DNA from: a candidate division WOR-3 bacterium | Lineage (GTDB): Bacteria; Hydrothermota; Tepidihabitantia; SM23-42 | Direction: 5' to 3' | Assembly: GCA_016936155.1 (NCBI GenBank) | Contig: JAFGPO010000081.1 | Coordinates: 5,172-69,171, forward strand | Length of the DNA: 64,000 bases | Shown: positions 6,537 to 27,367 of the stretch, piece by piece | Layout of the letters: each line of letters begins with the position of its first letter | How positions within the stretch are numbered: the stretch's first letter is position 1 | Notes under the pieces: generated by a model | Told to the model about the DNA's origin: nothing | What the model saw: only the letters and a program-made list of their open reading frames with translations | Databases searched by the model: none | Program-made: the position numbers and the translations under genes

Positions 6537-9500
6537 TTACGATGCGACCGACAACGCGGCAAGTATCTGAGTGTCGCGAAAACCTTTAAGATCGATCGCG
6601 CCCGAGCGACATGATGCAGCGCACGTTCCGCAACCTTTGCAGAGTACTTCGTTGACCACGGCAACATTCTTTTCAGCATCAAGCTCGATCGCTCGGTAAG
6701 CACAGACGGCAACGCACAACCCACATCCACTGCACCGATCAGCACGTACCGAGGCGATCTTACCTTCGGCTTCAAGCATATCCTTGCTTAAAACCGTCAC
6801 TGCGCGAGATGCAGCGGCCTTTGCCTGGGCGATCGTTTCGCGGATGTCTTTGGGATAGTGCGCGAGCCCGCACACGAAAATCCCGTCGGTAGCGAAGTCG
6901 ACAGGGCGTAATTTCACATGCGCCTCAAAGAAGAAACCATCAATACCCAACGGCACCTTGAGTGCCTGGGAAAGTCGCTTGTTGTCACCATTGGGCACCA
7001 CGCCAGTGCTTAAAACCAGAAGGTCGGGGTTGAAATATATTGATCTATCCAGTACTTTTTCCCGACCGGTCACCAACAGACCATTTCCGTTGATCTCGAC
7101 ACGCGGTTTTTCCGCAGCATCATACTGGATGAAAACGATACCTGCTTGCCGTGCTTTTTTGTAAAACAGTTCTTTTAGACCGTATGACCGCACGTCACGG
7201 TAGAAATTGAATATAGCAACATTGGGGATCATCTTTTTAAGGAGTAAGGCGTTTTTGATCGCCATACTGCAGCAGATCCTGCTGCAATACGGATGATTAT
7301 CATCCCGGGAACCGACACAATTGATCATGACCACTTTTTTGACAGCCGGCAATGACGGATCGTTCGATGCGATCTTCTGTTCCAGCTCGCGTTGGGTAAT
7401 GATACGCGGATCCTGCCCATAGCAATATTCCTTGGGAATATGCTCATAGGCTCCCGTTGCCACGACAATGACCCCGTGCTCGATCTCTTGTATTGTTTCA
7501 TCCCCGTTTGACAGCATGGAATCCTCTGCAATATCCTTAGATATACATTGTACGGTCGTCAGGAAATTACCGATATAACCGCTCGTTTTACTTATCTTGC
7601 TTGACATGTAGACGGTAATTTGAGGATGAGTGCTGACGAGGTTTATAATATCTTGGAGTACAGGAGCAGTTTCTTTACCGTCAAGGGTATACTGGATGTA
7701 CCTCAGATTACCTCCAAGTGCTTTTTCTTTCTCAACAAGATGAACATGGTAACCATGATCAGCGATATCAAGGGCGGCGATCATTCCGGATATGCCGCCG
7801 CCAATGACCAAAGCTTGTTTGCTCACACCTAATGGGGTTTTGCTGAGCGGCTCTTGATAGACTACTTTCGCAATGGACATCCTCACGAGATCGATCGCCT
7901 TTGCAGTCGCCTGTTCCGGTTCCTGCTGGTGGACCCAGGAGCACTGGTCGCGGATATTAGCAAAATCGAATAAAAATTGATTGAGTCCGGCCTTGCGCAA
8001 TGTTTCCTGAAAAAGCGGTTCATGGGTTCTCGGTGTGCATGCGGCAACTACGATACGGTTGAGATCGTGTTCATGGATCGCATCGATAATGAGTTTCTGG
8101 GCATCCTGCGAGCACGCGAACATAAGATCCTGACAATGAACAACGTACGGTTCTTTAGCGATCTCCTCGACCACTTTCTTCACGTCCACTGTTGCCGCGA
8201 TATTAATGCCACAGTGGCACACGAAAACACCGACATTCGGCCGATCGCCCTCGTTGATATCTCGCATCGGTGGATATTCGACAACAATCTTATTGCTCTC
8301 GAAATCCTTCAACAGGGCCCCAGCTGAAGATGCGGCACCGCTAGCTTCAATAACAGATTCCGGGATATCCTTGGGCCCGGATATCGTACCGCATACGAAG
8401 ATCCCAGGTCGCGATGTACCGACAGGTTTGAAATCACTGGTAACGACAAATCCAAAATCGTTGATCGCAATGCCGAGGGTATCGCACAACCGATGCAGCA
8501 CAGGGGTAGAGACCAGACCAACGGAAAGGATCAGCAGATCGAATCTATCCTTGATTGTTCTCCCGTTGATCGCGTACTGTACGATCGGATCATCGTTCAC
8601 TGGATCTACGTCGACAGTTGATACGCGTGCACGTACAAAACGGGTATTATGTTCTTGCTCGGCCCGATCGATGAACGCGTCGAAGTTCTTACCACAAGCC
8701 CTGATATCCATGCTGAAAACAGTAATGGCAACATCAGGCATATGCTCGGTGATAATGATCGCATCCTTTGCTGCCTGCATACAACAGATCGCAGAACAAT
8801 ATTCATTACCGCTCCGTTCATCGCGTGAACCAACACACTGGATAAAAGCGACACGCCTTGGTTCTCGTCGATCGGACGGACGGAGTACATGACCCCGGGT
8901 CGGGCCAGAAGCACTTAACATGCGTTCGAATTCCATGCTGGTCACAACGTTCGGACATGTCTTGTAAGCATATTCATCCTGATGAAGTGCATTATACTCT
9001 CCTAAACCGGCTGCAACTATAATGCTGCCCACTTCGAGCATTACTGTCTCCTCTTTTTGATCGAAATCGATAGCTTTCGGTTCGCAGACGCGCTCGCAGT
9101 TACGACACTTGCCCTTATTCAGGTACAAACAGTGTTCTGCGTCAATAAGCGCTACAGCAGGAACAGCCTGCGGAAAAGGAATATGAATGCATTTGGTGTC
9201 CATAAGGCTCATATTATACTGGTCCGGGATCTTTATCGGGCATTTTGTCATACACACGCCGCACCCGGTACACCGGTCCTCATCAACATACCGGGGATAT
9301 TTGCGCACGGCTACCTTAAAATAAGGAGCCTCTCCTGAAACCTGTTCAACCTCGGCGTTGGTAATAATCGTTATATACGGATGGTTACCCGCTTCCACAA
9401 GTTTGGGAGACAGGATACACAGCGAACAGTCATTTGTCGGGAATGTCTTGTCGAGCTGGGCCATGCGCCCCCCGATGCTCGGTGATCGTTCAACCAGAAA

Positions 9501-9626
9501 TACTTCAATACCAGAATCGGCCAGGTCAAGAGCAGCCTGAACACCAGCGATACCTCCGCCTATCACCATAACTTTCTTGTGAACCTGTTTAGCGCTCATG
9601 GATGTGCTCCTATCGACCTTTGTCAT
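6537..9626 (-). CDS. hdrA: tandem HdrA-like flavo-iron-sulfur protein (two HdrA units in one chain, uninterrupted)
   Basis: 1029 aa. Unit 1: [72 protein letters not shown]. Unit 2: VFVCHCGINI N-domain, LVIGGGISGMIAALDIA, INCVGSRDDNHPYCSRICC. C-terminal CSGCGLCVAVC and CKGCGTCAASC. Confidence 0.9.
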   Translation of the reverse strand: MTKVDRSTSMSAKQVHKKVMVIGGGIAGVQAALDLADSGIEVFLVERSPSIGGRMAQLDKTFPTNDCSLCILSPKLVEAGNHPYITIITNAEVEQVSGEAPYFKVAVRKYPRYVDEDRCTGCGVCMTKCPIKIPDQYNMSLMDTKCIHIPFPQAVPAVALIDAEHCLYLNKGKCRNCERVCEPKAIDFDQKEETVMLEVGSIIVAAGLGEYNALHQDEYAYKTCPNVVTSMEFERMLSASGPTRGHVLRPSDRREPRRVAFIQCVGSRDERSGNEYCSAICCMQAAKDAIIITEHMPDVAITVFSMDIRACGKNFDAFIDRAEQEHNTRFVRARVSTVDVDPVNDDPIVQYAINGRTIKDRFDLLILSVGLVSTPVLHRLCDTLGIAINDFGFVVTSDFKPVGTSRPGIFVCGTISGPKDIPESVIEASGAASSAGALLKDFESNKIVVEYPPMRDINEGDRPNVGVFVCHCGINIAATVDVKKVVEEIAKEPYVVHCQDLMFACSQDAQKLIIDAIHEHDLNRIVVAACTPRTHEPLFQETLRKAGLNQFLFDFANIRDQCSWVHQQEPEQATAKAIDLVRMSIAKVVYQEPLSKTPLGVSKQALVIGGGISGMIAALDIADHGYHVHLVEKEKALGGNLRYIQYTLDGKETAPVLQDIINLVSTHPQITVYMSSKISKTSGYIGNFLTTVQCISKDIAEDSMLSNGDETIQEIEHGVIVVATGAYEHIPKEYCYGQDPRIITQRELEQKIASNDPSLPAVKKVVMINCVGSRDDNHPYCSRICCSMAIKNALLLKKMIPNVAIFNFYRDVRSYGLKELFYKKARQAGIVFIQYDAAEKPRVEINGNGLLVTGREKVLDRSIYFNPDLLVLSTGVVPNGDNKRLSQALKVPLGIDGFFFEAHVKLRPVDFATDGIFVCGLAHYPKDIRETIAQAKAAASRAVTVLSKDMLEAEGKIASVRADRCSGCGLCVAVCAYRAIELDAEKNVAVVNEVLCKGCGTCAASCRSGAIDLKGFRDTQILAALSVAS

Positions 9627-9642: not shown

Positions 9643-10110
9643 TCAACCTTTAGAAGATTGAGATTCGTGTGCTGCTGTAAGATCGTATTTGATGAGATCG
9701 TGACGCAGGATCTGAAGTCGTTTGTCGATCTCCTGAATGCGCTCGGCAATATCCGGTCGGGCGTAATTCTCCTTAATCGCCAGATATCGCAGGACGCGCA
9801 TGAGATCGGGAAAGTTTACATTCTGAGGGCAGTGCGCATAGCAGCGGTAACATACAAGGCAGTACCAGATCGCCGGTGATTGTAGCACCTCATCCCGCAA
9901 GCCGAAAAGGATCTCCCGTATGATACGACGCGGGTTGTATTCTTCGTCGATCTCACTGATCGGACAACCAGCAGTGCATGTTCCGCACGCAAAGCACTTC
10001 CGCAGGTTCTCGCCACCGGGATAGGACATGATCTCTGCGGCAAAGCCAAGATCGACATCGTCCATGTTAATTGCCGGTTTTTGCTCGGTCATAAAGATGC
10101 TCCTTTTCAT
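9643..10110 (-). CDS. hdrC: HdrC-like 4Fe-4S dicluster protein
   Basis: 155 aa. CFACGTCTAGCPI and CLVCYRCYAHCPQ. Paralog of 28263..28760. Alternative ATG starts at 10092 and 10065; the latter lies 1 nt after the MvhD stop. Confidence 0.8.
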   Translation of the reverse strand: MKRSIFMTEQKPAINMDDVDLGFAAEIMSYPGGENLRKCFACGTCTAGCPISEIDEEYNPRRIIREILFGLRDEVLQSPAIWYCLVCYRCYAHCPQNVNFPDLMRVLRYLAIKENYARPDIAERIQEIDKRLQILRHDLIKYDLTAAHESQSSKG

Positions 10111-10513
10111 GGTTATTGAACGGACCTAATTGTCTGATATGCTCAGTAAATTCATTGATAACCTGCTGGAACTTGTTGCCTTCCCCGGCAGATACCCATT
10201 CCAGTTTCAAGCGGTTTTCATTGATGCCGAATTCCCGGAGCATGATCTTGAGTAGGTGAAACCTTCTCAGGGTCTTGTAGTTCCCGGAGATATAGTGGCA
10301 ATCCCCGGGATGACAGCCAGTTATTAAAACACCATCTGCTCCCTGTGTAAATGCGGTCAGTATAAATTCTGGATCGATGCGCCCCGAGCACATGGTCCGG
10401 ATCACCCTGAAATATGGTGCCATTTGCAGCCGCGACACACCTGCCAGGTCAGCACCGGCATATGAACACCAATTACAACAGAATACGATTATGTTAGGAT
10501 CAAAAGTTTCCAC
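10067..10513 (-). CDS. mvhD: MvhD family protein
   Basis: 148 aa. FCCNWCSYAGADLAGVSR...MCSGRIDP...ITGCHPGDCHY. GTG start with GGAG 5 nt upstream. Long nucleotide runs are identical to 22488..22898. Confidence 0.9.
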   Translation of the reverse strand: METFDPNIIVFCCNWCSYAGADLAGVSRLQMAPYFRVIRTMCSGRIDPEFILTAFTQGADGVLITGCHPGDCHYISGNYKTLRRFHLLKIMLREFGINENRLKLEWVSAGEGNKFQQVINEFTEHIRQLGPFNNHEKEHLYDRAKTGN

Positions 10514-10546
10514 TACTACTCCTTGTTATCGCACCACCTGGCATGT

Positions 10547-13500
10547 TCACCACCTCACCGCGTCTACCATTGCCATGATCTGCTGTTTGGTAAATCCCCA
10601 TTGCTCAATAGCCCCGGACGGACAGGATGCAGCGCATGTTCCACAGCCTTTGCACAGAGCTTCATTAATATGGGAATGCCTCTTTCCATTGTCATCGACC
10701 TTCATCTCGATCGCTTTATACGGACATAAACTGGTGCACATGCCGCACCCAGCGCATAGTTCTTCATTGACCTCAGAAACTGTAGCCTCAGCATAGTAGG
10801 TATCCTGCGCCAGTATCGTCGATGCACGCGCAGCTGCCGCCTGCGCCTGGCAAATGGTCTCGGTAATAAGCTTCGGACTATGCGCGAGGCCAGCAACAAA
10901 AATCCCTTCGGTCGCGAAGTCCACTGGCCGCAGCTTCACATGTGCTTCGAGGAAGTAACCGTCCTTGTTCAAAGGCACCTTGAGCATCCTTGCAAGCACT
11001 TCGTTGTCCTCATTGGGAATAATGCCGGAAGAGAGCACAACAACGTCGGGGTGGACAACAACATCCTGTGCGAGCACTGGTTCGTGGAAGCGAACCTCGA
11101 GTGATGATCCGTTCGAAACAACCGCGGGTTCTTTGTCCTCGTCATAGCGAACGAACATAATACTTGCCCGACGTGCGCGTGTGTAGTAATCCTCCTTGAA
11201 ACCGTACATCCGGACATCGCGGTACAGGATGAATATTTGTACATATGGGTTTACATCGCGAAGCTTCAATGCGTTCTTTACGGCCTGGGCGCAGCACCGC
11301 CGGCTGCAGTACGGATGTACGCCATTCCGTGATCCCACGCACTGGATCATTACAACGGATTTGAGCGCATCAATACCAGGCACTGATGCACTGGAAGAAC
11401 CGTTCCCGTTGCCGTGCTGTACCAAATACTGTTCAAGCTGCTGCTGCGTCACCACCCGCGGCTCTTTACCATAACCGTACTCCTGGGGGACATACTCCGA
11501 ACCACCCGTGGCAACGATAACGACACCATGCTGGTATGTGTGCGGTACCCGGTCTGCATCCCGTATCACGGTCTCATAGTTGCCCACGAATCCGTTGATC
11601 GACTCGATCCGGGCACCGGTATACACGGTGATACGGAGATGATCATGGACCTTTTTTATCTGCTCCGCAAGGAAATCATCCATATGATCGTTCTCAAGGG
11701 TGTAGTGTATGTTGCGCAGATGACCACCCAGTTCTTGTTTTTTTTCTACAAGACATACATTATATCCCTGCTCTGCCAGGGAATACGCGGCCACCATGCC
11801 TGCAATGCCGCCCCCGATGACGAGCGCGGACTGGTTAACAGCAATGGCAACACGTTTCAGTGGACGCAGAAAACGCGCTTTTGCCGCTGCCATCGACACA
11901 AGGTCCTTGGCTTTTTCAGTGGCTGCAACGCGATCATGCATGTGGATCCAAGAGCACTGATCGCGTATGTTCGCCATCTCAAACAAGTACGGATTCAAAC
12001 CAGCCTCGCGCATAGTCTCACGGAACAATGGCTCATGGGTTCGCGGCGTGCACGATGCGACCACGATACGGTTCAACCGGTGGGTGGCGATCATGTTCGT
12101 GATCCTGTGCTGGCTGTCCTGTGAACACGTATAAAGATTGGATTCTGCATAGACAACGTCTGGTTCGTTCCTGACATGCTCGACCACTGCCGCGACATCA
12201 ACGTAGCCCCCGATATTAATACCGCAGTGGCACACAAAAACGCCGATACGCGGCATTGCATTGCGGACATTAATCTCTGGTGGATACTGCTTTACGGAAA
12301 TGAGTGCATGGCGCTCACTAGCCAGCAGCTGCATGGCCTTCGCGGCAGCAGCTGATGATTGCGTCACAGTCTCTGGTATATCCTTTGGTTCAGTACAGGG
12401 CCCGCAGACAAAAACTCCTGCCCGGGTAGATTGCACGGGATCGTTCTGGGCGGTCGTGCAGAACCCGTATTTATTCAGAGAAATACCCGCTTTTCGAGCG
12501 AAATCCGCACTGTCTCTGGATGGATGCAGGCCGCACGACAACACCACCATGTCAAAAACCTCTTGGTGCGCGCTGCCATCCGGTAAACTATACCGTATGT
12601 ATAAACTCTTGCTGGGATTGACTTCGTCGATTGATGATGGTCGGCACCGGATGTATCTGATGCCACTCTGCAGTGCCTTTTCATAGTATTCATCAAAACC
12701 TTTGCCGAACGCCCTCAGATCCATAAAGAAGATCGTGCATTGAAGATCCGGCGAATGTTCGCGGGCGATCAGCGCCTGTTTGGTAGCATGCATACAGCAT
12801 ACCGACGAACAATACGGATGGTCGTCGTCCCGTGAACCGACACACTGGATAAAGGCGATTTGGCGGGGTTCGCTCAGATCACCGGGTCGCTGTACGTGTC
12901 CCTGGTACGGACCGGAAGCGGACAGGATCCGCTCGAATTCGATAGACATGACCACGTTTTTGAATCGCCCATTCCCGAATTCCCGAAATAAGGTACCATT
13001 GCCCACCTCGAACCCGGAGGCAATGATCACGGCACCGACCTCGAGCTTCACGGTCTCGTCATGCTGGTCAAAATCGATCGCCTGTGCCTCACAAAGGTCC
13101 TGGCAGATCCTGCACTTATCGGTAATGAAGTGCATACAATGGTCCTTATCGATGATCGCGGAATTCGGCACTGCCTGGGGAAATGGGATACGAATCGCAG
13201 GACGGGTCCGTAGACGCTCATCAAACTCATCGAGCAATGGCCTGGGCTTGCGGATGCCGAGTTTTTCAAGTCGTTTTGATGAGGTCGGGCATACCTGGAA
13301 GCATGCTCCGCAAGCCATACACCGGGGCGACTCGACATCAAAGGGCGGAGCGATCAGTCGTTTATCACCGCGCGATGCAAACCCGATGACATTACGCCCC
13401 ATGCGTTCACTGCACATACGAACACAAAGGCCGCACAGGATGCAATCCTCGTTCCGACGCACATACGGCGTATCAACAACGCCCATGGTCCGCGCCATCT

Positions 13501-15771: not shown

Positions 15772-15773
15772 GT

Positions 15774-16670
15774 CTACTCTTTCTCTTTCTGATAATGATC
15801 GATAACACGCTGTACTTTCTTCGGCGCCATATGCCCGTAATACGTGTCATCGACAAGGACCACCGGTGCCAGCGCACATGCGCCCACACAATTCACTGTC
15901 TCCAGCGTAAACAACATATCGTTGGTATTCTGACCCGCGGGAATGCCCAGTATCCGCTCGAATTCCTCGAGTACCCTCCTTGCTCCCCGTACATGACAGG
16001 CAGTGCCCAGACAAACCCGGATCACATGCACCCCCCGCTTTTGCAGACTCAAAGCCCGGTAAAAGGTGGCGACACTGAAGATAAGATTCAACGGGATATG
16101 CAGGTGTTCTGAAACATACTTCAACAGGTCCGCGGGAAGATAGTTGTACTTACGGTTTATCGCCTGTAATACAGGCATGAGGACGCCCTGTTGTCCTTCA
16201 TACTCATTGATGATTTTTTGTATCGTTTCGCGGTCTGAGTCACTCAGCACGACTCGCTCTTGGACAGTATCTTCATAGGGGATCTGCTGCACAGGACAGT
16301 TCTGCATGCATAATCCGCACCCCGTGCACTTATCCACATCAACGTACCGGGGCTTTTTATGGATCGTTACAAGGAAATTGCCGCTTTCGCCTGCGATCTC
16401 TTCAAGGTCAGAATTGGTGATCACCTCGATATTGGGATGACGGGCAACGCTCACCAATTTCGGCGCAAGTATGCACATCGAGCAGTCATTTGTCGGAAAG
16501 GTTTTATCAAGCTGCGCCATCACACCGCCGATACTTGGTTTTTTGTCGAGAAGATACACTTTGAATCCGGACTCAGCAAGGTCCAGAGCCGCCTGGATGC
16601 CCCCAATGCCACCGCCCACCACAAGGGCGGCCCCGGTCACCTTTTGTTTCTTCATAACCGCAGTTTTCAT
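15774..16670 (-). CDS. HdrA N-terminal FAD-binding fragment fused to a NuoE-type thioredoxin-like [2Fe-2S] domain
   Basis: 298 aa. [38 protein letters not shown] and [12 protein letters not shown]. This region closely resembles the N-terminus of 22913..27367. NuoE motifs follow: [14 protein letters not shown]...[15 protein letters not shown] overlap at 16667-16670. Confidence 0.85.
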
Positions 16671-17059: not shown

Positions 17060-17075
17060 TGTACTCTCCTTATTC

Positions 17076-18836: not shown

Positions 18837-18850
18837 ACATGTTTATGTTA

Positions 18851-18866
18851 TGCAAATACCATGCCA
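18851..18866 (-). promoter_or_regulatory. candidate sigma-54 (-24/-12) promoter
   Basis: The minus strand reads TGGCAT-GGTAT-TTGCA. That matches 10 of 11 positions of the TGGCAC-N5-TTGCA consensus, with correct GG-N10-GC spacing. It lies 14 nt upstream of the ATG at 18836 and directly downstream of a sigma-54 activator gene. Confidence 0.5.
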
Positions 18867-19093
18867 GGTATCGATCGCACAGAATATCATAAAACATCAT
18901 TAATTTCTTTCGAAATTACGGATGTTATTTTATGTTAATTCGTATAGACTGGGAGTGGTGTGTTTAACCTGAATAGTTTTTATATGCATACGAATCCCTT
19001 ATTTACCCATATTTCATGCAGCAAAGCCAGGACATTATGAATAAAAAAACTATGCATGAAGTAAAAACATATGCATATGGGTTTAGTGCATGG

Positions 19094-20482: not shown

Positions 20483-20492
20483 AAGCGAATTG

Positions 20493-22418
20493 TCACTGCT
20501 TGTTGCCAATCGGCACAACTGGTAACCGGATGGTAAATGTCGTACCCTGATTCAGTTCGCTCGTTACTTCGATCGTCCCATCGTGATCCTTGATAATACG
20601 ATAGCTAATCGCAAGACCCAAACCCACGCCGTGCGATGTATCCTTGGTCGTAAAGAACGGCTCAAAGACCTTGGACAGGTGTTTCGGATCAATACCTGAG
20701 CCTGTATCCGTGAATTGTATTTCGATATACTTACCATCATGGCTTATGCGTGACGTGATCTGAAGCACGCCTTGCCCACCCATAGATTCGGCTGCATTGA
20801 TTATAATATTCATGAATACTTGTTGGATCTGCATCGGATCGATCTTTATCATGGGCAGATGATCATCAAAATTGCGTTCGATATCAATATTATGAAATAG
20901 CGCCTGATTCTTGACCAACGACAGTGTCGTGGAAATAATATCATTCACCAAGGAATCCTGGATCTCGGGTTTTTTCTGGCGTGAGAATTCGAGCAGACCG
21001 TGTACGATCTTCTTGCACCGCGCAGCTTCATGGCTGATCCTCTCGACGTTCTTACGTGTCTTGCCATCCCCTGGCCTGCCTTTAAGCAATAGATCGCAAT
21101 ACAGAATGATCCCAGTCAAAGGATTATTAATTTCATGCGCCACCCCGGCGGCAAGCTGTCCGATCATTGCTAGTCGTTCGGCTTCCGCGATCTTTTTCTG
21201 GGCGAATTCTTTGATCTTGGCGTCGCGCTCCTTAATCGACTGATTCATAAAATTAAACACATCCACAAGATCGCCGATCTCATCGTTAGATTCGATCTGC
21301 ACGTTGTCAGAGAATTGACCGTCGGCAATATGTTTCGCAACTTTAGCCAGTTTGCTAACCGGCTTGATGATGCTGTTCGCGAGAAAGAAGGATACGGCAA
21401 ACGCAAAGGCGATCCCGAGGATCGTGATCGCCAGAAAGGTAAATACGACATTATTCTGCAAATCAGTAAACTTCTGCTCCAGGATACCCACATACAGGAT
21501 TCCGATGATCTTGCCGTCAATGTTTTTGATCGGTTCGTATGCTGTAATATACCAGTCATTAACGACAAAAGCCCGGGCGATCCAGGGAAGGCCCTGGACA
21601 ATGACCCGGTCATAAACTTCCTGAGAAACCCGGGTACCGATAGCTCGGTTTCCATCCTTTCGATGCACATTCGTGGAGATCCTTAAGTCACCCTGAAAGA
21701 TCGTCGCCGTGCCGATATCCTTACCATGATACTGCTCTCCGTGATATACAAGATCCTTGATCCGATCAACGATCTCATTGCTCTGGTTCAGTAATCGACC
21801 ACCGTATAGAATACCCAATAGTTTCCCATTATCGCTGAAAACCGGTGCCGCTGCTATAATCACCATGCCTGAGGTTTCAACGGTCTCATCCCGGGGACGC
21901 GCTTTTGGTGTTGGAATGATCTCGATGCGCGCTTGTGCTGCCAGCTTAGGACATTCTCTGAAGAGTTTTTCTTCGGGAATGATTTGGGTGAAAACAACTG
22001 GGATTTTGTCCCTTATGGCCTGCGACACGATGTCGTCGTGGATTGTATCACCGTATACGGTTGGATTGCATGTCCGGACGAGAACGATCCCCTGTGCATC
22101 AACAAGAGTCAAGATATCCAAGCGCTCGTTTTCTTTAATCCTCTCAAGTTCCTTCTGCAACAGGACAAGATTATTATTGACCAGCGCGTTTTTCACGAAA
22201 AAACGCACAGTAGTTAATCGGACTACATCCTTGATATTAGCACTTACCTCATTGTACACCTCACGGGCCGAGTTTATGTCGAGACGTACTTTATCCTGTG
22301 CCTGTTTGATGATCCCGTCGCCGATGAGACGCACACCGATGATCATACTGACCACACCACTGATCAGAACGACCAATACCAGGCTTACGATGAACTTTGT
22401 TCGCAACCGGACTTTCAT
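20493..22418 (-). CDS. sensor histidine kinase (TM - Cache-like - TM - HAMP - HisKA - HATPase)
   Basis: 641 aa. GTATIFQGDLRISTNV, RAIGTRVSQEVYDRV, GVAHEINNPLT, DTGSGI, GVGLGLAISYRI. Paralog of 22..2088. Confidence 0.9.
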   Translation of the reverse strand: MKVRLRTKFIVSLVLVVLISGVVSMIIGVRLIGDGIIKQAQDKVRLDINSAREVYNEVSANIKDVVRLTTVRFFVKNALVNNNLVLLQKELERIKENERLDILTLVDAQGIVLVRTCNPTVYGDTIHDDIVSQAIRDKIPVVFTQIIPEEKLFRECPKLAAQARIEIIPTPKARPRDETVETSGMVIIAAAPVFSDNGKLLGILYGGRLLNQSNEIVDRIKDLVYHGEQYHGKDIGTATIFQGDLRISTNVHRKDGNRAIGTRVSQEVYDRVIVQGLPWIARAFVVNDWYITAYEPIKNIDGKIIGILYVGILEQKFTDLQNNVVFTFLAITILGIAFAFAVSFFLANSIIKPVSKLAKVAKHIADGQFSDNVQIESNDEIGDLVDVFNFMNQSIKERDAKIKEFAQKKIAEAERLAMIGQLAAGVAHEINNPLTGIILYCDLLLKGRPGDGKTRKNVERISHEAARCKKIVHGLLEFSRQKKPEIQDSLVNDIISTTLSLVKNQALFHNIDIERNFDDHLPMIKIDPMQIQQVFMNIIINAAESMGGQGVLQITSRISHDGKYIEIQFTDTGSGIDPKHLSKVFEPFFTTKDTSHGVGLGLAISYRIIKDHDGTIEVTSELNQGTTFTIRLPVVPIGNKQ

Positions 22419-22487: not shown

Positions 22488-22898
22488 TTAACCGCTACCA
22501 TTCAACGGGCCGATTTTTTTTACCTGCTCAGTAAATTCATTGATAACCTGCTGGAACTTATTGCCCTCCCCGGCAGATACCCATTCTAATTTCAGCCGGT
22601 TCTCATGTATACCGAATTCCCGGAGCATGACTTTTAGTATATGATACCTTCTCAAGGTCTTGTAATTTCCGGATAGGTAGTGGCAATCTCCTGGATGACA
22701 TCCAGTTATTAAAACACCATCCACTCCCTGCTTGAAAGCAGTTAGAACGAACTCGGGATCGATGCGCCCCGAGCACATGGTCCGGATCACCCTGAAATGA
22801 GGAGCCATTTGCAGCCGCGACACACCTGCCAGGTCAGCACCGGCATACGAACACCAGTTACAGCAGAAAACCACGATCGTAGGTTTGTAATCATCCAT
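22488..22898 (-). CDS. mvhD: MvhD family protein
   Basis: FCCNWCSYAGADLAGVSR...MCSGRIDP...ITGCHPGDCHY. ATG at 22898 preceded by AAGGAG with a 5-nt spacer. Confidence 0.9.
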   Translation of the reverse strand: MDDYKPTIVVFCCNWCSYAGADLAGVSRLQMAPHFRVIRTMCSGRIDPEFVLTAFKQGVDGVLITGCHPGDCHYLSGNYKTLRRYHILKVMLREFGIHENRLKLEWVSAGEGNKFQQVINEFTEQVKKIGPLNGSG

Positions 22899-22912
22899 AA
22901 ACACTCCTTACC

Positions 22913-25900
22913 TCACCGTAATGTCTCAATCATTTTCATGATCTGATCCTTGGTAAAACCATACTGTTCCATTGCACCCGACGGACACGCGGCCACGCAT
23001 GTACCGCAGCCTTTACACAGGGCTTCGTTGACATACGAACGACGATGGCCATTTTCCTCAAGGAGCGTGATCGCTTCGTACGGACACAGTGTTTTGCAGA
23101 TCCCGCATCCAGCGCACATATCTTCGTTAACATGTGATATTGCGGCTTCGGCGCGGTATTTCTTATAACTGAGGATCGTCGCGGCACGGGACGCAGCTGC
23201 CTGAGCCTGAGCGATCGTTTCATCGATCGACTTGGGGCTGTGCGCGAGTCCCGCGACGAAAATGCCTTCAGTGGCGAAGTCTACCGGGCGGAGCTTTGCA
23301 TGCGCTTCGAGGAAGAACCGATCGTTGTTCAATGGTATTTTGAGCATCTGAGCCAGACGGTTATTGTCAGACTGAGCCTCGATACCGGTTGACAACACGA
23401 CCAGATCAGCCGGGATCTCAATCTGTTGCTTGAGTATGGGTTCGAAAATCTCAACACTTAGGGTATTGTTATCCTGAATCAGCCGCGGCATGTTCGATCG
23501 ATCATAGCGAATAAAAATAACACCACCCGCCCGCGCCTGACTGTAGAAATCTTCTTTGAATCCATACGTACGCACGTCCCGATACAATACATATATATTA
23601 CAGTCGGGATTGCTTCCCAGAAGTCTAAGCGCGTTTTTAACCGCCTGTGTACAGCACATGCGACTGCAATACGGATGGTCATCATCACGCGACCCAATGC
23701 ATTGAACCATCACCATGGACCTACAGTTCATTGGATTAACTGATGCAGGGCTTTCCGGTGCTGCCAGCGCCTGTTCTAATTCTCGCTGGGTAACAACACG
23801 CTTGTCAACACCGTAGTGGTATTCTTTCGGCTGATATTCTTGGGCGCCGGTCGCAACGATCACCACCCCGTGTCTTAAATCCCTTTCAACATTACCGTGC
23901 ATCTTAATCCGTGTCGTGTAGTTCCCGATAAAGCCGGTTATATCCTTGATCATAACATCAGTAAACACCCTGATTCGCTCTTGCTTTCGGACCCGCGCTA
24001 TCGTTTCCAACAGAAATTGCTGAACGTTCCGTCCTTCAGGCGTATAGAATATATGTTTGAGATGTCCCCCCAGATCCTTATCCTTTTCAATCAGGAACAC
24101 CTCAAAACCCTGTTCTGCGAGGGAAAGACTTGTCGTCATACCAGCGATCCCGCCTCCGATAACCAGGGCGCGCTGGGCTATGTCCACTTCAACGCGCCGT
24201 AATGGCACGAGAAGCCGGGCTTTGGCCACTGCCATACGGACCAAGTCCTTCGCCTTTGCTGTTGCTGCGTCTGGCTGTTCCATATGTATCCAGGAACACT
24301 GATCACGGATATTCGCCATCTCGAATAAGTACGGATTAAGTCCAGCCTCCTGTACTGTTTCACGGAAAAGCGGTTCGTGGGTTCGGGGTGTACATGACGC
24401 AACAACGACGCGATTAAGATCATGTTCCCGGATCATCTGAGTAATACGTTTTTGGGTATCCTGGGAACACGTATAGAGATTACTCTCTACATGGGCAACG
24501 TTCGGGAGTGTCCTGATATACTCGGCTACTTCATCCACTTTAACATAACCACCAATATTAATGCCGCAATGGCATACAAACACGCCGATCCGTGGTTCTT
24601 TCCCGGCAACGTCGATCTCCGGGGGATATTCCCTCGAAGTCATGAGTGTGTGCCGGGCCGGCGCCAACAACTCCATTGCCCGAGCTGCAGCTGCAGAAGC
24701 CTGGGTTACGGTTTCCGGGATATCCTTGGGGCCGGAAAATACGCCACACACAAAAACACCGTCGCGCATTGTATCGACCGGATAAAATTCTGAGGTCCGG
24801 CAAAAACCGTGTTCATTGAGGTTTACGCGCAAACGTTTAGCCAGCTGCCGGGTATTTTGCTTTGGGAACAGCCCGACCGAAAGCACGACCATATCAAATG
24901 TTTCGCGCTGGATCGTGCCGTCTTCGCTTTCATAGATAACAGTAAGATCCTTTGTCTGGGAATCTTCCACGATCTTTGACACACCTGCTCGGACAAAACG
25001 CACCTTATATTCCTGCTGAGCGCGTTCGTAGTAAGCTTCAAATCCTTTACCAAAGGTCCGCATATCCATGAAGAAGATGCTCGCTTCCAGGCTCCCGCGC
25101 GCGTGCTCTTTCGCAATGATCGCTTCTTTGATCGCATATGTGCAGCATACTGATGAACAATAAGAAGCGCCTGACTGTGGATCCCGCGACCCGACACACT
25201 GTATGAACGCGATACGCTGCGGTGCCTTTTTGTCACCGGGTCGAATAACATGTCCTTCAAACGGTCCGGATGCGGATAGGATCCGCTCGAATTCGATCGA
25301 CGTAACGACATTGGCATACCGCCCATAACCGTATTCCTGTTTCCGGCGCGCATCATATTCATCGAATCCGGACGCGAGAATGATGGCGCCGACATTCAGA
25401 TCACGTATTTCACTGGTCATCCAATGATCGATCGCATTGGCCTTGCATGCTGAAGCACAGAGATAGCATGAAGCGCATACACCGCACTCCATACACCGCC
25501 TGGCTTCGCGGATCGCCTCTTCTTCCGAATAATTTATCTCAACTTCATCCCATGACCGTACCCGCGCGATCGGATCGAAAGCACGGATCGGCGTACGCGG
25601 CTGGACCGGGTGTTCACCTTCCGGAGTCATGGCGAGCTCAGGCTTGATCTTCTCACGATTATGCCGTATATCCTCGTTTCGCAAAAAGCGGTTGATCGAT
25701 ATGGCAGCTTCATTGCCATCCGCGATCGCTTCAATGATCGACGCCGGTCCGCGCACGATGTCTCCCCCGGCAAAAATACCGGTGCGACTCGTTTGCAGGG
25801 TAATGGGATCCACATTTAGAGTTTTCCATGCAGTCCATTCCAACTCCTCGAATCCCTGCGTTTTTGATTCCTGACCAACCGCAAGTATCACGGTATCGCC

Positions 25901-27367
25901 GGCGATCGTGCTCACGTCACACTCTTCTTTGAATTGCGGGTTGAACCGGCCTCCCTCATCATAGACCCTCATGCATTCGATGGTTTCCAATCCGCCAATT
26001 TGATCGTCTTTGATCACGATACGGCCCGGACCGAGTAAGCTATGTATATGTATGCCCTCCTGTTCAGCGGCCTGTATTTCCCATTCGTGAGCCGGCATCC
26101 TGTCCTTTGATGTAAGATCCCTGGTTTCAAGACACACGAGGTCAACAGATTCAGCGCCGAGTCTGCGTGCAGTGCGCGCGCAGTCGATCGCTACATTCCC
26201 GCCCCCGATAACAATGACCCTGGTGCCAAAATTCTTCACCTCCACCCCGGCTTTGACCTCCTGTAAGAATGGAATGCCCAGGTGGACACCCGGGTGATCA
26301 ACACCCGCAATCTGCAGGCGCTTTGCACCCTGTACTCCGATCGCAATGAATATCGCTTTGTACCCCTCTTTCTTCAGGCGTTCAAGGGTCGTATCCTTAC
26401 CCACTGAAACATTGCCGCGGAATTCAACCCCAAGATCGATGATACGCTGGGCATCATAAAGAGCAATGTCTTTTGGTAACCGGTATTCCGGGATACACGA
26501 TGTCATCATGCCGCCCGGGATCATGGAACTGTCAAAAACCGTTACAGGATACCCCTGGCACCGGAGTTTCTCAGCGCATGTCAAACCTGCTGGACCGCCG
26601 CCGATTATCGCAATCCGGTCTTCCCGCGTTTCTTCTATCTCAGGCAGAGGGCGGTCACCATGTGCACGTGCCCGATCAGCAACAAACCGCTTGAGGTGCA
26701 TGATCGCCACGGGTTCGTCAACATCACCGCGATTGCATGCTTGCTCGCAGGCATGGTGGCAGACCCGGCCGCAAATAGATGGAAACGGAATAACGCTTCG
26801 GATATAATCGAGCGCTCCGTCGAACTGTCCCTTGGCAATGAACGCTGCATACGCCTGGCCGGACAACCCAGCCGGGCATGCATCCTTGCACGGTGGCATG
26901 CCGCTCTTGTTAATCTTAAATGCATTAGGTACTGCCTGAGGGTAGAGCCGGAAAATCGCCTTGCGCTCGGCAAGACGTTCATCGAATTCATTGGGGATGG
27001 TGATCGGGCATACGCTGACGCAATCCCCGCAACCCGTGCACTTATCCTCGATCACGTAGCGAGCGTCTTTTTTGATGTGGACCGTGAAGTCGCCCGCATC
27101 TCCAGTGACCTGGTCGATCTGCGCATTCGTTATGATCTCGATGTTCGGATGACGGCCGACACTAACAAGCTTGGGAGCAAGAATACACATTGAGCAGTCG
27201 TTCGTTGGGAATGTCTTGTCGAGCTGGGGCATCACGCCACCGATGCTCGGCTCCTTTTCCAGCAGGTATACCTTGAAGCCGGCGTTTGCCAGGTCAAGAG
27301 CGGCCTGAATGCCACCGATTCCTCCCCCGACAACCAATACAGCGCCTACTCTCTTGTTGTTATCCAC
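22913..27367 (-). CDS. giant tandem HdrA with an inserted GltD/NfnB-like NAD(P)H-FAD module (HdrL-like)
   Basis: 1484 aa. GTG start with GAGGAG 5 nt upstream. HdrA N-fragment ([50 protein letters not shown]). GltD-like insert (CKDACPAG, ICGRVCHHACEQAC, IAIIGGGPAGL, VIVIGGGNVAIDCA, IFAGGDIV). The HdrA scaffold then resumes (CMECGVCASC, FIQCVGSRD). A second unit follows (VFVCHCGINI, LVIGGGIAGMTTS, VQCIGSRDDDHPYCSRMCC, CAGCGICKTLCP, CKGCGTCVAACP). Confidence 0.9.
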   Translation of the reverse strand: MDNNKRVGAVLVVGGGIGGIQAALDLANAGFKVYLLEKEPSIGGVMPQLDKTFPTNDCSMCILAPKLVSVGRHPNIEIITNAQIDQVTGDAGDFTVHIKKDARYVIEDKCTGCGDCVSVCPITIPNEFDERLAERKAIFRLYPQAVPNAFKINKSGMPPCKDACPAGLSGQAYAAFIAKGQFDGALDYIRSVIPFPSICGRVCHHACEQACNRGDVDEPVAIMHLKRFVADRARAHGDRPLPEIEETREDRIAIIGGGPAGLTCAEKLRCQGYPVTVFDSSMIPGGMMTSCIPEYRLPKDIALYDAQRIIDLGVEFRGNVSVGKDTTLERLKKEGYKAIFIAIGVQGAKRLQIAGVDHPGVHLGIPFLQEVKAGVEVKNFGTRVIVIGGGNVAIDCARTARRLGAESVDLVCLETRDLTSKDRMPAHEWEIQAAEQEGIHIHSLLGPGRIVIKDDQIGGLETIECMRVYDEGGRFNPQFKEECDVSTIAGDTVILAVGQESKTQGFEELEWTAWKTLNVDPITLQTSRTGIFAGGDIVRGPASIIEAIADGNEAAISINRFLRNEDIRHNREKIKPELAMTPEGEHPVQPRTPIRAFDPIARVRSWDEVEINYSEEEAIREARRCMECGVCASCYLCASACKANAIDHWMTSEIRDLNVGAIILASGFDEYDARRKQEYGYGRYANVVTSIEFERILSASGPFEGHVIRPGDKKAPQRIAFIQCVGSRDPQSGASYCSSVCCTYAIKEAIIAKEHARGSLEASIFFMDMRTFGKGFEAYYERAQQEYKVRFVRAGVSKIVEDSQTKDLTVIYESEDGTIQRETFDMVVLSVGLFPKQNTRQLAKRLRVNLNEHGFCRTSEFYPVDTMRDGVFVCGVFSGPKDIPETVTQASAAAARAMELLAPARHTLMTSREYPPEIDVAGKEPRIGVFVCHCGINIGGYVKVDEVAEYIRTLPNVAHVESNLYTCSQDTQKRITQMIREHDLNRVVVASCTPRTHEPLFRETVQEAGLNPYLFEMANIRDQCSWIHMEQPDAATAKAKDLVRMAVAKARLLVPLRRVEVDIAQRALVIGGGIAGMTTSLSLAEQGFEVFLIEKDKDLGGHLKHIFYTPEGRNVQQFLLETIARVRKQERIRVFTDVMIKDITGFIGNYTTRIKMHGNVERDLRHGVVIVATGAQEYQPKEYHYGVDKRVVTQRELEQALAAPESPASVNPMNCRSMVMVQCIGSRDDDHPYCSRMCCTQAVKNALRLLGSNPDCNIYVLYRDVRTYGFKEDFYSQARAGGVIFIRYDRSNMPRLIQDNNTLSVEIFEPILKQQIEIPADLVVLSTGIEAQSDNNRLAQMLKIPLNNDRFFLEAHAKLRPVDFATEGIFVAGLAHSPKSIDETIAQAQAAASRAATILSYKKYRAEAAISHVNEDMCAGCGICKTLCPYEAITLLEENGHRRSYVNEALCKGCGTCVAACPSGAMEQYGFTKDQIMKMIETLR

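Follow-up and report, generated by a model that had tools for sequence, protein, structure and literature searches.

The presence of three tandem HdrA proteins within one 64,000-nucleotide stretch (the window) of the metagenome-assembled genome of an uncultured WOR-3 bacterium raises the question whether one of them is distributed over two polypeptides bracketing an NADH module and, if so, where in HdrA this module is attached. That one tandem-HdrA scaffold occurs here in three versions (A, B and C) was claimed in a preliminary description and is confirmed by Pfam and PDB mapping; the motif strings quoted there were all recovered on the minus strand, in the open reading frames and at the coordinates named. 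Versions A and B, with the neighbors of B, are encoded as follows.

6537..9626, minus strand: A, intact tandem HdrA (NCBI MBN2620422.1; Pfam)
22913..27367, minus strand: B, tandem HdrA with a GltD/NfnB-like insert, HdrL type (Pfam, alignment)
25508..26905, minus strand: GltD/NfnB-like insert of B, residues ~155-620 (Fer4_20 with 2x[4Fe-4S]; FAD and NAD(P)H Rossmann domains)
22488..22904, minus strand: MvhD of the B operon (Pfam FlpD)
27370..28266, minus strand: HdrB-like protein with CCG domains, upstream of B (Pfam)
28263..28760, minus strand: HdrC-like protein, upstream of B (Pfam)

Version A carries GGGIAGVQAALDLADSG at residues 23-39, a 12-residue string at 59-70, CTGCGVCMTKCP at 119-130, IPFPQAVP at 149-156, CRNCERVCEP at 174-183 and FIQCVGSRD at 261-269. 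It is located in an Flx-type operon, was modelled by AF2 with a pTM of 0.84 and matches solved HdrA with Foldseek TM scores of 0.77-0.92. In B, CTGCGDCVSVCP (110-121) and YPQAVPNAFKI (142-152) are followed by ICGRVCHHACEQAC (198-211), IAIIGGGPAGL (252-262) and VIVIGGGNVAIDCA (384-397), and then by CMECGVCASC (625-634) and FIQCVGSRD (721-729). The insert, bounded by YPQAVPNAFKINK and Cys motif 2, amounts to ~455 residues, and the GltD/NfnB likeness ascribed to it is borne out by Pfam matches to Fer4_20 (147-236) and Pyr_redox_2 (251-551). Both proteins are of already known kinds, B being of the HdrL or 'type III' kind. In version C, the scaffold is found in the outer two of three genes.

15774..16670, minus strand: C1, HdrA N-fragment (residues 1 to ~132) and NuoE/HydC/BfuC-type [2Fe-2S] subunit (residues 150-294) (Pfam, PDB matches)
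16275..16670, minus strand: HdrA N-fragment inside C1 (PDB matches, alignment)
13915..15771, minus strand: C2, NuoF/HydB/BfuB-type FMN/NADH subunit (Pfam; 7T2R_B match)
10547..13918, minus strand: C3, BfuA-type N-terminal module and rest of tandem HdrA, 1123 residues (NCBI MBN2620425.1)
13280..13813, minus strand: BfuA/HydA-N-type module of C3, residues 36-213 (best PDB match 9MQX_A)
12269..13243, minus strand: rest of HdrA unit 1 in C3, residues ~226-550, without GxGxxG (alignment)
10550..12253, minus strand: HdrA N-terminal-type cluster domain (residues 556-690), complete TrxR unit 2 and C-terminal 2x[4Fe-4S] ferredoxin domain of C3 (5ODC match, Pfam)

The N-fragment of C1 features the FAD-binding beta-alpha-beta (GGGIGG), the loop DKTFPTNDC63SMC66 with the equivalents of Cys194 and Cys197 of 5ODC, and Cys motif 1 of the inserted ferredoxin domain (C115/118/121/125-P); the strings quoted for it lie at residues 19-35 (17 residues), 55-66 and 115-126 (12 residues each). 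Pfam assigned an FAD/NAD Rossmann domain and one Fer4 to residues 16-128 and 2Fe-2S_thioredx (NuoE) to 150-294 (E = 7e-47), and a PDB search aligned residues 8-134 with HdrA 136-262 (~140-262 of 5ODC) at E = 1e-44 to 1e-47 against solved chains. C3, matching 5ODC_A with E = 2e-163, picks up HdrA at 5ODC ~257-263 and then runs through the whole protein. Its unit 1 comprises LLDEFDERL..IRIPFPQAVP, Cys motif 2 (C-x8-CRICQDLC), the cluster ligands QCVGSRD..YCSSVCC and the FAD motif GVFVCGP..PKDIPE (IRIPFPQAVP at 242-251, CRICQDLCEA at 269-278, FIQCVGSRD at 356-364); both the second FAD motif and the cluster ligands, which do not vary among intact HdrAs, are thereby retained. Residues 556-786 and 939-1119 correspond to 5ODC 4-235 and 468-647, with the GGGIAG of unit 2 at 702.

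A search of C3 for G.G..G returned just residue 702 (unit 2) and residue 1091 (within a Fer4 motif) and none in unit 1, in agreement with the absence of GxGxxG reported before; in Pfam, Fer2_4 was matched at 36-114 and the only Rossmann domain from 698 on. According to the PDB matches and the alignment, the HdrA part missing from C3 is precisely the one to which the N-fragment is homologous, and this fragment is not an unrelated autonomous fold. The FAD/TrxR and inserted ferredoxin domains of unit 1 are, as had been proposed, encoded in two complementary pieces bracketing the NADH module, separated by ~3.0 kb (about 16275 to about 13243) in place of the 2.7 kb first given. Judged by the E-values of the N-fragment and of C3, chance resemblance can be regarded as excluded for both. 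In an AF2 model of C1 alone, the NuoE domain reached a pLDDT of 80-96, with values below 50 in the CxxC loop (residues 45-67) and at Cys motif 1 (residues 107-137), as would be expected if a partner were needed but also compatible with a poor model.

The bracketed genes had been described as a NuoE-NuoF-NuoG(N) module, which holds with respect to NADH but not to a complex-I type. The match of C2 to solved HydB/BfuB extends from end to end (650-800 bits; residues 22-607 with NiFe-HydB 7T2R_B at 803 bits), whereas complex-I Nqo1 yields 376 bits in the core only. Besides Complex1_51K, SLBB and NADH_4Fe-4S, C2 has a thioredoxin-like [2Fe-2S] domain at its N-terminus and two Fer4 (2x[4Fe-4S]) at its C-terminus. 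The C-terminal part of C1 matches HydC/BfuC (residues 147-294 with HydC of 8A6T), and residues 36-213 of C3, a [2Fe-2S] Fer2_4 domain with CxxCxxCxxxC motifs at 159-169 and 200-211 and without a His-ligated cluster motif, have the 247-residue BfuA-like chain 9MQX_A as top PDB match (E = 2e-39). By sequence comparison, the module is assigned to the HydCBA/Bfu type, i.e., an NADH and ferredoxin module with its own predicted bifurcation site, and not a simple NADH dehydrogenase. Downstream of C3, the following genes were found.

10067..10513, minus strand: MvhD/FlpD-type [2Fe-2S] adaptor, next after C3 (Pfam FlpD, E = 1e-55)
9643..10110, minus strand: HdrC-like 2x[4Fe-4S] protein (Pfam Fer4_8/17)
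6049..6525, minus strand: FlxD, MvhD-like (Pfam)
5085..6083, minus strand: FlxC-like (Pfam)
4039..5073, minus strand: FlxB-like (Pfam)
3203..4042, minus strand: FlxA-like NAD(P)H/FAD/[2Fe-2S] protein (Pfam)

From 17086 down to 3203, gaps range from -44 to +33 nt, and the FlxDCBA genes (3203..6525) share the operon with C and A; within the window, this operon carries no HdrB, a point against the enzyme proposed below. At RR/C1 (-4 nt), C1/C2 (+2 nt) and C2/C3 (-4 nt), start codons overlap the preceding stop codon or come close to it, and the ATG of C3 at 13918 overlaps the C2 stop.

The same split architecture was sought in other genomes and recurs across many bacterial phyla. C1-like proteins of 285-307 residues and C3-like proteins each form more than 120 homologous clusters (90% identity for the former), and the order C1-C2-(optional genes)-C3 with intact reading frames is kept at all 23 loci long enough to be informative, an MvhD homologue following C3 in 18 of them and HdrC-like homologues adjoining the cluster at several loci. 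The record titles refer to Eubacteriales, Fibrobacterota, Latescibacterota, Spirochaetota, Melioribacter, Cloacimonadota, Acidobacteriota, Desulfobacterota and Planctomycetota; both families also seem to be present on at least 20 further contigs, as suggested by identical 'longest contig' lengths in their two match lists. Across 34 diverse C1 homologues, GxGxxG, the CxxC loop and all four cysteines of motif 1 are invariant, and mean pairwise identity is 75% in the N-fragment versus 54% in the NuoE part, with a variable linker. At four loci from Desulfobacterota, a reading frame of ~130 residues consists of the N-fragment alone, with TGA (selenocysteine) at the position of Cys197, and NuoE follows in a frame of its own. 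No description of version C, the split HdrA around a Bfu module, was found in the searched literature.

With regard to the attachment point, B and C had been claimed to be modified at the same site. They do share the linker between the two Cys motifs, and hence no different structural elements are concerned, but the split in C directly follows Cys motif 1 (5ODC ~259-263) and the insert in B is placed shortly ahead of Cys motif 2 (5ODC ~290-292), ~28 residues downstream at the opposite end of the linker; in either family, the respective position is conserved. The site is also not next to the bifurcating flavin, as had been suggested, but in the inserted ferredoxin domain, which solved Hdr and BCRII complexes use as their distal port for low-potential output.

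Most likely, 16670..10067 (C1-C2-C3-MvhD) encodes one multi-subunit flavo-iron-sulfur enzyme, here termed 'Hdr-Bfu', with unit 1 rebuilt from two polypeptides. The basis for this is homology, complementarity of the pieces, conservation and synteny; we infer physical reassembly, cluster-ligand pairing, direction of electron flow, substrates and function, and likewise nucleotide specificity and a single supercomplex of C with A-Flx. The first TrxR/FAD unit would be reconstituted from C1, supplying the FAD-binding beta-alpha-beta, the CxxC pair (its second cysteine equivalent to Cys197) and the first four cysteines of the inserted ferredoxin domain, and C3, supplying all remaining parts. Across the interface of the two would then lie a single FAD site and, probably, three [4Fe-4S] clusters, i.e., two of the inserted ferredoxin domain and that of the N-domain. 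The break points are proposed to be fused to the outer HydCBA/Bfu subunits, C1 bearing BfuC and C3 opening with the BfuA cluster module, and C2 as BfuB would hold FMN, the NADH site and the ferredoxin-side clusters, so that the low-potential exit port of HdrA would be hard-wired to a second NADH and ferredoxin bifurcating/confurcating site replacing free ferredoxin. The other two branches would be served by MvhD together with HdrC, A and FlxDCBA further downstream. In B, the same domain would bear a GltD/NfnB-type NAD(P)H flavoprotein, with A as the unmodified scaffold. Nevertheless, in BCRII, the one solved complex with modules of both types, that of the Bfu type feeds the input side of HdrA (C-terminal ferredoxin domain and MvhD) and not the inserted ferredoxin domain; by this comparison, the proposed wiring would be without structural precedent, which counts against the scheme.

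The modular port itself might be one historical accident, B and C descending from an ancestor already modified in this domain and later rearranged, which is possible though the less probable reading. Consistent with it, in neighbor-joining trees of the unit-1 cores (without support values), B-like and C3-like proteins fall together and apart from A-like ones, with B-like sequences as a grade around the C3 clade; C1 and C3 share 68% and 56.5% identity with B compared to 62% and 47.5% with A, and some C-type operons contain a GltD domain, fused to NuoF. Nevertheless, EFDERL..PQAVP precedes the insert in B and follows the Bfu module in C, and thus neither arrangement is derivable from the other by simple deletion. 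Moreover, two separate GltD insertions are reported in the literature for archaeal HdrA, and BCRII docks BamBC via the same domain.

It is improbable that the inserted ferredoxin domain of C3 is self-sufficient, using 200-211 with motif 2 while C1 motif 1 pairs with 159-169; the N-fragment would still provide the FAD-binding fold, and the Bfu-HdrA Fe-S wiring would be domain-swapped. BLASTP and HMMER do place motif 1 of A and 5ODC on C3 200-211, with a 14-residue gap, which counts against the pairing in Hdr-Bfu, and the placement was the same in a MAFFT alignment of intact HdrAs with a chimera. However, 159-169 and 200-211 are both conserved and collinear in 9MQX_A and HydA1 of 8A6T, neither of which has an HdrA part. 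Their occurrence in the stand-alone BfuA 9MQX_A therefore argues that they pair together, which would leave Cys motif 2 of C3 for motif 1 of C1. In HydA/NuoG-type proteins, the two Cys motifs make up one 2x[4Fe-4S] domain. The segment following motif 1 that is shared with B (EFDERL...PQAVP) also starts just 16 residues past CP211 of C3.

Even less probable than such swapping is that the N-fragment of C1 is a functionless relic and unit 1 of C3 flavin-free or structural, like the non-bifurcating TrxR2 of BamE, C then amounting to just a Bfu enzyme on a scaffold derived from HdrA. One of two TrxR units in the fused HdrA dimer of BCRII was indeed judged structural and not catalytic, and the isolated N-fragment is partly poorly modelled, but this fragment is the best-conserved part of C1 with all cofactor residues invariant, persists as its own selenocysteine-containing frame at four loci, and is matched by the FAD and cluster motifs of intact HdrA still present in unit 1 of C3. 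Finally, an artefact (mis-assembly, frameshift or pseudogene), for which nothing was found beyond the origin of the window from a metagenome-assembled genome, is refuted by the conservation data, i.e., the >120 clusters of either family and the 23 independent genome loci.

NCBI gene calls omit part of the split arrangement, the call for C1 beginning at Met122.

All genes considered here lie on the minus strand in the ORF map of the window and belong to two operons, whose composition was read from Pfam and, for the second operon, from gene spacing as well:

17086 to 3203, minus strand: first operon, with gaps between genes of -44 to +33 nt, in the order response regulator, C1, C2, C3, MvhD ([2Fe-2S] adaptor protein), HdrC-like, A, FlxD-, FlxC-, FlxB- and FlxA-like
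15774..16670, minus strand: C1, HdrA N-fragment fused to a NuoE/HydC/BfuC domain
13915..15771, minus strand: C2, NuoF/HydB/BfuB
10547..13918, minus strand: C3, BfuA module followed by the remaining tandem HdrA
6537..9626, minus strand: A, intact tandem HdrA
Second operon, minus strand: HdrC, HdrB, B, MvhD
22913..27367, minus strand: B, tandem HdrA with a GltD/NfnB-like insert
22488..22904, minus strand: MvhD of the second operon

The real start of C3 is the ATG overlapping the stop of C2. Database entries of 100% identity exist for C3 (P0121) and A (P0241). A CCG-domain (HdrB) gene was not found by Pfam between 3203 and 17086; the sole one, 27370..28266, is part of the B operon.

The three versions of HdrA, i.e., A, B and the split C, have one scaffold in common. 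It opens with unit 1, which is composed of a TrxR/FAD domain, a CxxC pair (equivalents of Cys194/Cys197) and an inserted ferredoxin domain, and continues with the HdrA 'N-terminal' cluster domain, a second TrxR unit without inserted ferredoxin domain (unit 2) and a C-terminal 2x[4Fe-4S] domain. Such a complementary layout of fused HdrAs is already found in the literature: tandem 'type II' HdrAs (Methanosarcina HdrA2, fused HdrAs of ANME) likewise comprise two TrxR units per chain with the N-terminal cluster domain and Cys197 being complementary. Nevertheless, the ANME fusions start with the unit bearing the N-terminal domain, unlike A, B and C, and a split version has not been described for them. 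HdrA residue numbers refer to the solved protein of Methanothermococcus thermolithotrophicus (5ODC_A) and were rebuilt from a HMMER alignment, with invariant columns being taken from correctly aligned MAFFT regions only. A matched this protein in three collinear pieces (E = 1e-196), and its AF2 model (pTM 0.84) fitted solved HdrA chains with TM 0.77-0.92 (Foldseek). Every motif string quoted in the preliminary description was located at its position in the ORFs of the window, and Pfam bore out the domain maps proposed there.

Two of the three versions are of known kinds. A belongs to the ordinary tandem ('type II') HdrAs and is located in a Flx-type cluster, with FlxA (NAD(P)H/FAD/[2Fe-2S]), FlxB/C (Fe-S) and FlxD (MvhD-like) adjoining hdrA. 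The FlxABCD-HdrABC gene set reportedly defines Flx-Hdr, and FlxD/C/B/A-like and HdrC-like genes stand alongside A according to Pfam as in Desulfovibrio; however, the operon of A and C lacks HdrB and its HdrA is a tandem protein. B belongs to the HdrL or 'type III' HdrAs and represents a known kind rather than a novelty. In HdrL of Desulfobacterium autotrophicum and Syntrophobacter fumaroxidans as well as in ANME-1 'type III' HdrA/HdrA-NfnB, a GltD/NfnB-like NAD(P)H flavoprotein of ~450-500 residues interrupts the inserted ferredoxin domain, MvhD follows and HdrBC are often nearby. Correspondingly, the inserted ferredoxin domain of B is interrupted by Fer4_20 and two Rossmann domains, MvhD adjoins at 22488..22904, and dozens of 50%-identity representatives match residues 5-700 of B collinearly in one stretch.

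The third version, C, distributes unit 1 over two proteins. Residues 8-134 of C1 match HdrA residues 136-262 (E about 1e-47), and HydC/NuoE chains are matched by its residues 147-294. C3 aligns with 5ODC_A (E = 2e-163), and its residues 36-213 match N-terminal modules of BfuA/HydA/NuoG. What is missing from unit 1 of C3 is exactly the cargo of C1, as had been proposed: the FAD beta-alpha-beta element, the DKTFPTNDC63SMC66 loop and Cys motif 1, the first of the two four-Cys motifs of the inserted ferredoxin domain. A hidden Rossmann motif in C3, which would have spoken against this, did not emerge, the pattern G.G..G occurring only at residue 702 (unit 2) and as a chance match within a Fer4 motif. 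Taken together, C1 and C3 hold the complete set of FAD motifs, with GGGIGG at residues 19-24 of C1 and GVFVCGP..PKDIPE in unit 1 of C3, where this second motif falls in columns invariant across the intact and split families. The CxxC pair with the Cys197 equivalent lies in C1 (NDC63SMC66, invariant in 34 homologues). The ligands of the TrxR-domain [4Fe-4S] cluster reside in C3 (QCVGSRDDDHPYCSSVCC; HdrA pattern QC..GSRD...YC...CC) and are, together with the second FAD motif, invariant in intact HdrAs. The inserted ferredoxin domain would be assembled from motif 1 of C1 (C115/118/121/125) and motif 2 of C3 (C-x8-C269-x2-C272-x3-C276). The FAD domain of C is therefore not contained in one polypeptide but spread over 15774..16670 and 10547..13918, with C2 between them. 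In the AF2 model of C1, the NuoE domain (pLDDT 80-96) and the beta-alpha-beta element (77-86) are well defined, in contrast to two stretches with values below 50, namely residues 45-67 (CxxC loop) and residues 107-137 (Cys motif 1); this may hint weakly at a region that needs FAD, clusters and a partner, where low values would be expected. Foldseek returned only NuoE-type matches for this model. C1 and C3 most likely form one HdrA unit jointly, and we infer that they reassemble physically. Besides, residues 1-30 of C3 (13829..13918) form a strongly basic, Lys/Arg-rich tail preceding Fer2_4 (MKRMKKRKKKSTMKKKRQVSRKKR...), and many homologues carry such a tail of 25-35 residues.

The split is conserved and widespread. 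The best 120 C1 homologues listed (90%-identity clusters) have 285-307 aa and are 53-73% identical to C1, except for P0001 with 100%, and nearly all of them are annotated with FAD/Fer4 as well as PF01257. Likewise, nearly all of the best 120 C3 homologues listed are about 1075-1127 aa long and combine PF13510 with HdrA domains; three shorter ones (P0181, P0201, P0213), which at first resembled intact close relatives of C3, are C3-type proteins whose gene calls are truncated. Over 34 diverse C1 homologues, G19, G21, G24, D55-C63, C66 and C115/118/121/125 are invariant, and the mean pairwise identity amounts to 75% in the N-fragment versus 54% in the NuoE part, with a variable linker between the two. 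Judged by these comparisons, the N-fragment is under purifying selection. A scan with one genome per species revealed full-length C1 matches in at least 27 loci. In all 23 loci extending far enough, C1 is followed by a C2 and then a C3 homologue, and MvhD comes after C3 in 18 of these 23. By their record titles, the loci come from Eubacteriales, Fibrobacterota, Latescibacterota, Spirochaetia, Melioribacter, Cloacimonadota, Sedimentisphaerales, Acidobacteriota, several Desulfobacterota and two 'archaeal' bins, and protein names extend this range to WOR-3, Aminicenantes and Planctomycetes. Four Desulfobacterota loci encode the N-fragment as an ORF of its own, about 130 aa long and followed by a separate NuoE ORF (L016 and L072, both 9998..10393; L023, 9694..10083; L064, 5739..6143), which shows the N-fragment to be a subunit in its own right. 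These ORFs have an in-frame TGA at the Cys197 position and their genuine stop 8-16 residues past motif 1. Since TGA recurs at this position in about 16 other HdrA genes among the compared loci, these being ordinary HdrA genes, it probably encodes selenocysteine. Intact tandem HdrAs follow the split cluster in L003 and L016 as in the window, and C3-type and A-type genes are apparently found repeatedly on shared contigs, judging by equal 'longest contig' lengths (P0130/P0244, P0135/P0246, P0140/P0245, P0124/P0252, P0162/P0259). The pairing of split and intact versions may itself be conserved.

Gene calling can hide the N-fragment. The deposited C1 of the window is a 177-aa 'NAD(P)H-dependent oxidoreductase subunit E' (MBN2620427.1) starting at Met122 within Cys motif 1. 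In an Aminicenantes genome (CP070757.1; L080, 4560..5460), a 145-aa NuoE alone was called within a continuous ORF of about 295 aa, which contains the N-fragment motifs including CTGCGLCVSNCP. Thus, as the NCBI calls of both genomes checked leave out the N-fragment, the split architecture can be invisible in annotation, and domain-based surveys of HdrA and NuoE/HydC may miscount.

With regard to the exact position of the break, the Cys motifs of the inserted ferredoxin domain of 5ODC comprise C246/249/252/256-P257 (motif 1) and C293/296/299/303 (motif 2). In the MAFFT alignment, HdrA homology of C1 stops at CPVQQIPYE (about residue 262) and that of C3 restarts at PRPLLDEFDERLRTRPAIRIPFPQAVP (about residues 257-283). 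B is unbroken through YPQAVPNAFKINK (about 278-290), followed by about 455 GltD/NfnB-like residues, and restarts at motif 2. The two interruptions had been assigned to the same site; both indeed fall within the linker between the Cys motifs, but they are about 28 residues apart, at opposite linker ends. Each position is kept in its family: 34 C1 homologues have CPV and then a linker that varies, and in 12 B-like representatives PQAxPxxxxIxK precedes ..PC...CPAG. For the intact A, AF2 puts both points into coil at the linker edges, and nowhere in unit 1 is the model less confident than in this linker (residues 133-154; pLDDT below 50, mostly coil). In clostridial-type 2x[4Fe-4S] ferredoxins, one cluster takes its ligands from both motifs, namely the final Cys of motif 1 and the initial three of motif 2, and by this analogy the insertion points of B and C are probably close in space, near this cluster. 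For C, pairing of C3 motif 2 with C1 motif 1 would be the most economical assignment, because the Cys motifs of BfuA pair mutually in stand-alone homologues; an alternative pairing is a less economical rival to it. A junction duplication, suggested by a short C1 segment resembling IPNEFDERLAERKAI of B, was dropped as this segment is not conserved across the C1 family.

The module between the two HdrA pieces is related to bifurcating enzymes. C2 aligns end to end with their NADH/FMN subunits, namely NiFe-HydB of Acetomicrobium mobile (7T2R_B, 803 bits), HydB of Acetobacterium woodii and Thermoanaerobacter kivui, WOR-Bfu (9MQX_B) and NfnB of Nfn-Bfu. These full-length alignments (735-803 bits for 7T2R_B, 7Q4V_B, 8A6T_B and 9MQX_B) extend over the [2Fe-2S] domain at the N-terminus and the 2x[4Fe-4S] domain at the C-terminus, in contrast to complex-I Nqo1/NuoF, which covers the core only (376 bits). 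Pfam domains and full-length alignment agree in giving C2 the composition of BfuB, namely an FMN/NADH core, an N-terminal [2Fe-2S] thioredoxin-like domain and a C-terminal 2x[4Fe-4S] domain. Residues 150-294 of C1 match PF01257 (E = 7e-47) with C220, C225, C261 and C265 being invariant, and this NuoE part is closest to HydC/BfuC, with TM 0.81-0.83 to such chains (Foldseek). Residues 36-213 of C3 carry the features of BfuA (A1 [2Fe-2S], A2/A4 [4Fe-4S]) and have their closest match in 9MQX_A, the short WOR-Bfu BfuA (E = 2e-39), to which the two CxxCxxCxxxC motifs align. A motif for a His-type A3 cluster was not seen in the C3 sequence, and enzymes of BfuB clade 45 are likewise reported without a His-ligated A3 cluster. 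As all three parts are nearest to Bfu/Hyd chains, the intervening module is, on sequence grounds, a BfuCBA (HydCBA-like) unit. Units of this kind are described in the literature as binding NAD(H) and ferredoxin and as possessing a bifurcation site of their own.

The gene content of related operons suggests the same Bfu/HydABC-type identity. Between the NuoF and C3 homologues of L007, DRTGG, CBS-HATPase, DRTGG, PHP and HATPase genes were found (13113..15862), and L008, L015, L017 and L024 have similar gaps at this place. We take this DRTGG/CBS-HATPase/PHP set to be a companion of HydABC hydrogenase operons. In addition, NuoF/BfuB is fused to a C-terminal GltD/NfnB-like module (Fer4_20 and Pyr_redox_2; 1029-1288 aa in total) in some split-type operons (L001, 11319..14408; L080, 6006..9872; also L004, L012 and L014), in which Bfu, GltD and HdrA flavin modules occur within one operon.

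Among known systems, Bam-Bfu, the class II benzoyl-CoA reductase of Geobacter metallireducens (BamBCDEFGHI), resembles C in its components. BamGHI is a HydCBA/Bfu-type module for NADH and ferredoxin, BamE a tandem HdrA in fused form and BamF the MvhD adaptor, and the inserted ferredoxin domain acts there as low-potential output port. The presence of BamGHI and BamE in one complex means that Bam-Bfu holds two distinct bifurcation modules, which was previously unreported according to a 2026 BCRII preprint on class II benzoyl-CoA reductase. However, the modules of Bam-Bfu are separate, complete polypeptides, whereas in C the HdrA is split and the Bfu module lies within the inserted ferredoxin domain at the gene level. 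Moreover, BamI feeds the C-terminal ferredoxin domain and MvhD, i.e., the input side of the unsplit BamE (2026 BCRII preprint), and the inserted ferredoxin domain docks BamBC; tungsten or BamD subunits are absent from C in the window. Compared to HdrL, C has a three-subunit Bfu module instead of GltD, a break ~28 residues upstream and a broken polypeptide. Type 1 BfuABC/HydABC enzymes (FeFe-HydABC, Nfn-Bfu/StnABC) share with C the BfuBC core and a BfuA N-terminal cluster module fused to a third-substrate catalytic domain. In C, by contrast, this 'catalytic domain' of BfuA consists of ~900 residues of tandem HdrA, itself a bifurcating flavoprotein, and BfuC bears the missing HdrA piece. A type like C is absent from the Bfu classification paper and its supplementary file (Schut et al., 2022), according to which HdrA occurs in no type but Bam-Bfu and 18 of 57 clades have yet to be characterised. 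For Desulfotignum phosphitoxidans, nuoEFG-like genes were noted with mvhD and hdrA, and the split was not recognised. No description of a split HdrA was found in the full-text literature searched, and an earlier one may exist elsewhere. C is conserved and widespread and represents an apparently undescribed variant, uniting two known enzyme families in a split form that is unusual.

In solved HdrA complexes, the high-potential electron leaves via the TrxR-domain cluster to HdrC/B or BamD, and the low-potential electron reaches the inserted ferredoxin domain via the N-domain cluster, which lies next to the CxxC pair; at the inserted domain, free ferredoxin is reduced or BamBC docked. In C, this exit port would be covalently continuous with the BfuA clusters, resulting in a two-stage device in which HdrA-FAD and Bfu-FMN would be coupled via the low-potential branch. 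The Bfu end would face the NADH and ferredoxin pools, and the other two branches would lead to MvhD, with A-FlxDCBA and its NAD(P)H site beyond it, and to HdrC. B would do likewise with an NfnB/GltD-type NAD(P)H flavoprotein, a role proposed earlier for ANME-1 and HdrL. The preliminary description, which had seen a modular plug-in site for NAD(P)H-oxidising modules next to the bifurcating flavin, was largely right, but the sites of B and C are not identical, the location is the low-potential port rather than the vicinity of the flavin, and the module of C is Bfu-type. In other loci, HdrC/HdrB precede C1 (L012-L014, L023) or FlxCBA directly follow the MvhD of the split cluster (L005, L072), which suggests a Flx-Hdr-like enzyme whose ferredoxin port is replaced by Bfu. 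Any particular physiological reaction for C is proposed with low confidence. The widest reading, which we regard as evenly balanced, is that of a bfuCBA operon inside the coding region of a tandem hdrA, representing a widespread, hitherto undescribed 'Hdr-Bfu' class of at least ten phyla; assembly of its bifurcating FAD domain would obligately require two polypeptides, or three in some Desulfobacterota, whose interface would supply Fe-S cluster ligands from both sides, and the mechanistically different HdrA-FAD and Bfu-FMN sites would stand in series via the low-potential branch.

Neighbor-joining trees of a 285-residue unit-1 core, which are without support values and served solely for grouping B-like and C3-like cores apart from A-like ones, placed the A-like sequences in one clade and the C3-like and B-like sequences in another, with the latter forming a grade around the C3 clade. 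Pairwise identity likewise puts C nearer to B than to A. Since the junctions of B and C differ, neither architecture can be derived from the other by simple deletion. The port may have been used several times, or altered a single time with later rearrangement. For archaeal HdrA, two independent GltD insertions were reported. Four families of flavin-based electron-bifurcating enzymes are known, HdrA and Bfu among them, and the combination of modules decides which redox couples anaerobes can link. After Bam-Bfu, the split family would be the second and far more widespread case of two bifurcation modules in one complex, with another wiring, in which Bfu would occupy the low-potential port and be interleaved covalently with HdrA. 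It further offers an unusually clean natural case of a cofactor-binding domain divided by operon insertion, with C1, C2, C3 and MvhD as a concrete set for further study of the split enzyme.

Some observations concern the remaining window. Three ORFs at 55.8-62.2 kb (314, 558 and 1095 aa), at first suspected of forming another split cluster, proved to encode an M29 peptidase, an Omp85/BamA-like protein and TamB. The ORFs 50252..52987 (plus strand, 911 aa) and 49567..50307 (plus strand, 246 aa) are without Pfam match at E <= 1e-5. The Hdr operons are set among unusually dense two-component and sigma-54-type regulators (16667..22418 and 28757..32493), including response regulators, PAS/HAMP histidine kinases and two NtrC-like activators, and one response-regulator gene overlaps the start of C1 by 4 nt. 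Finally, 34399..48155 (minus strand) resembles a membrane-bound complex-I/group-4-hydrogenase cluster with three Mrp/NuoLMN-type antiporter subunits, a NuoD/NiFe-large-subunit-like protein, NuoC, NuoH and Fer4_11 proteins, and additionally features another FlxA/FlxB-like pair as well as a molybdopterin-oxidoreductase-like protein that is short (523 aa).
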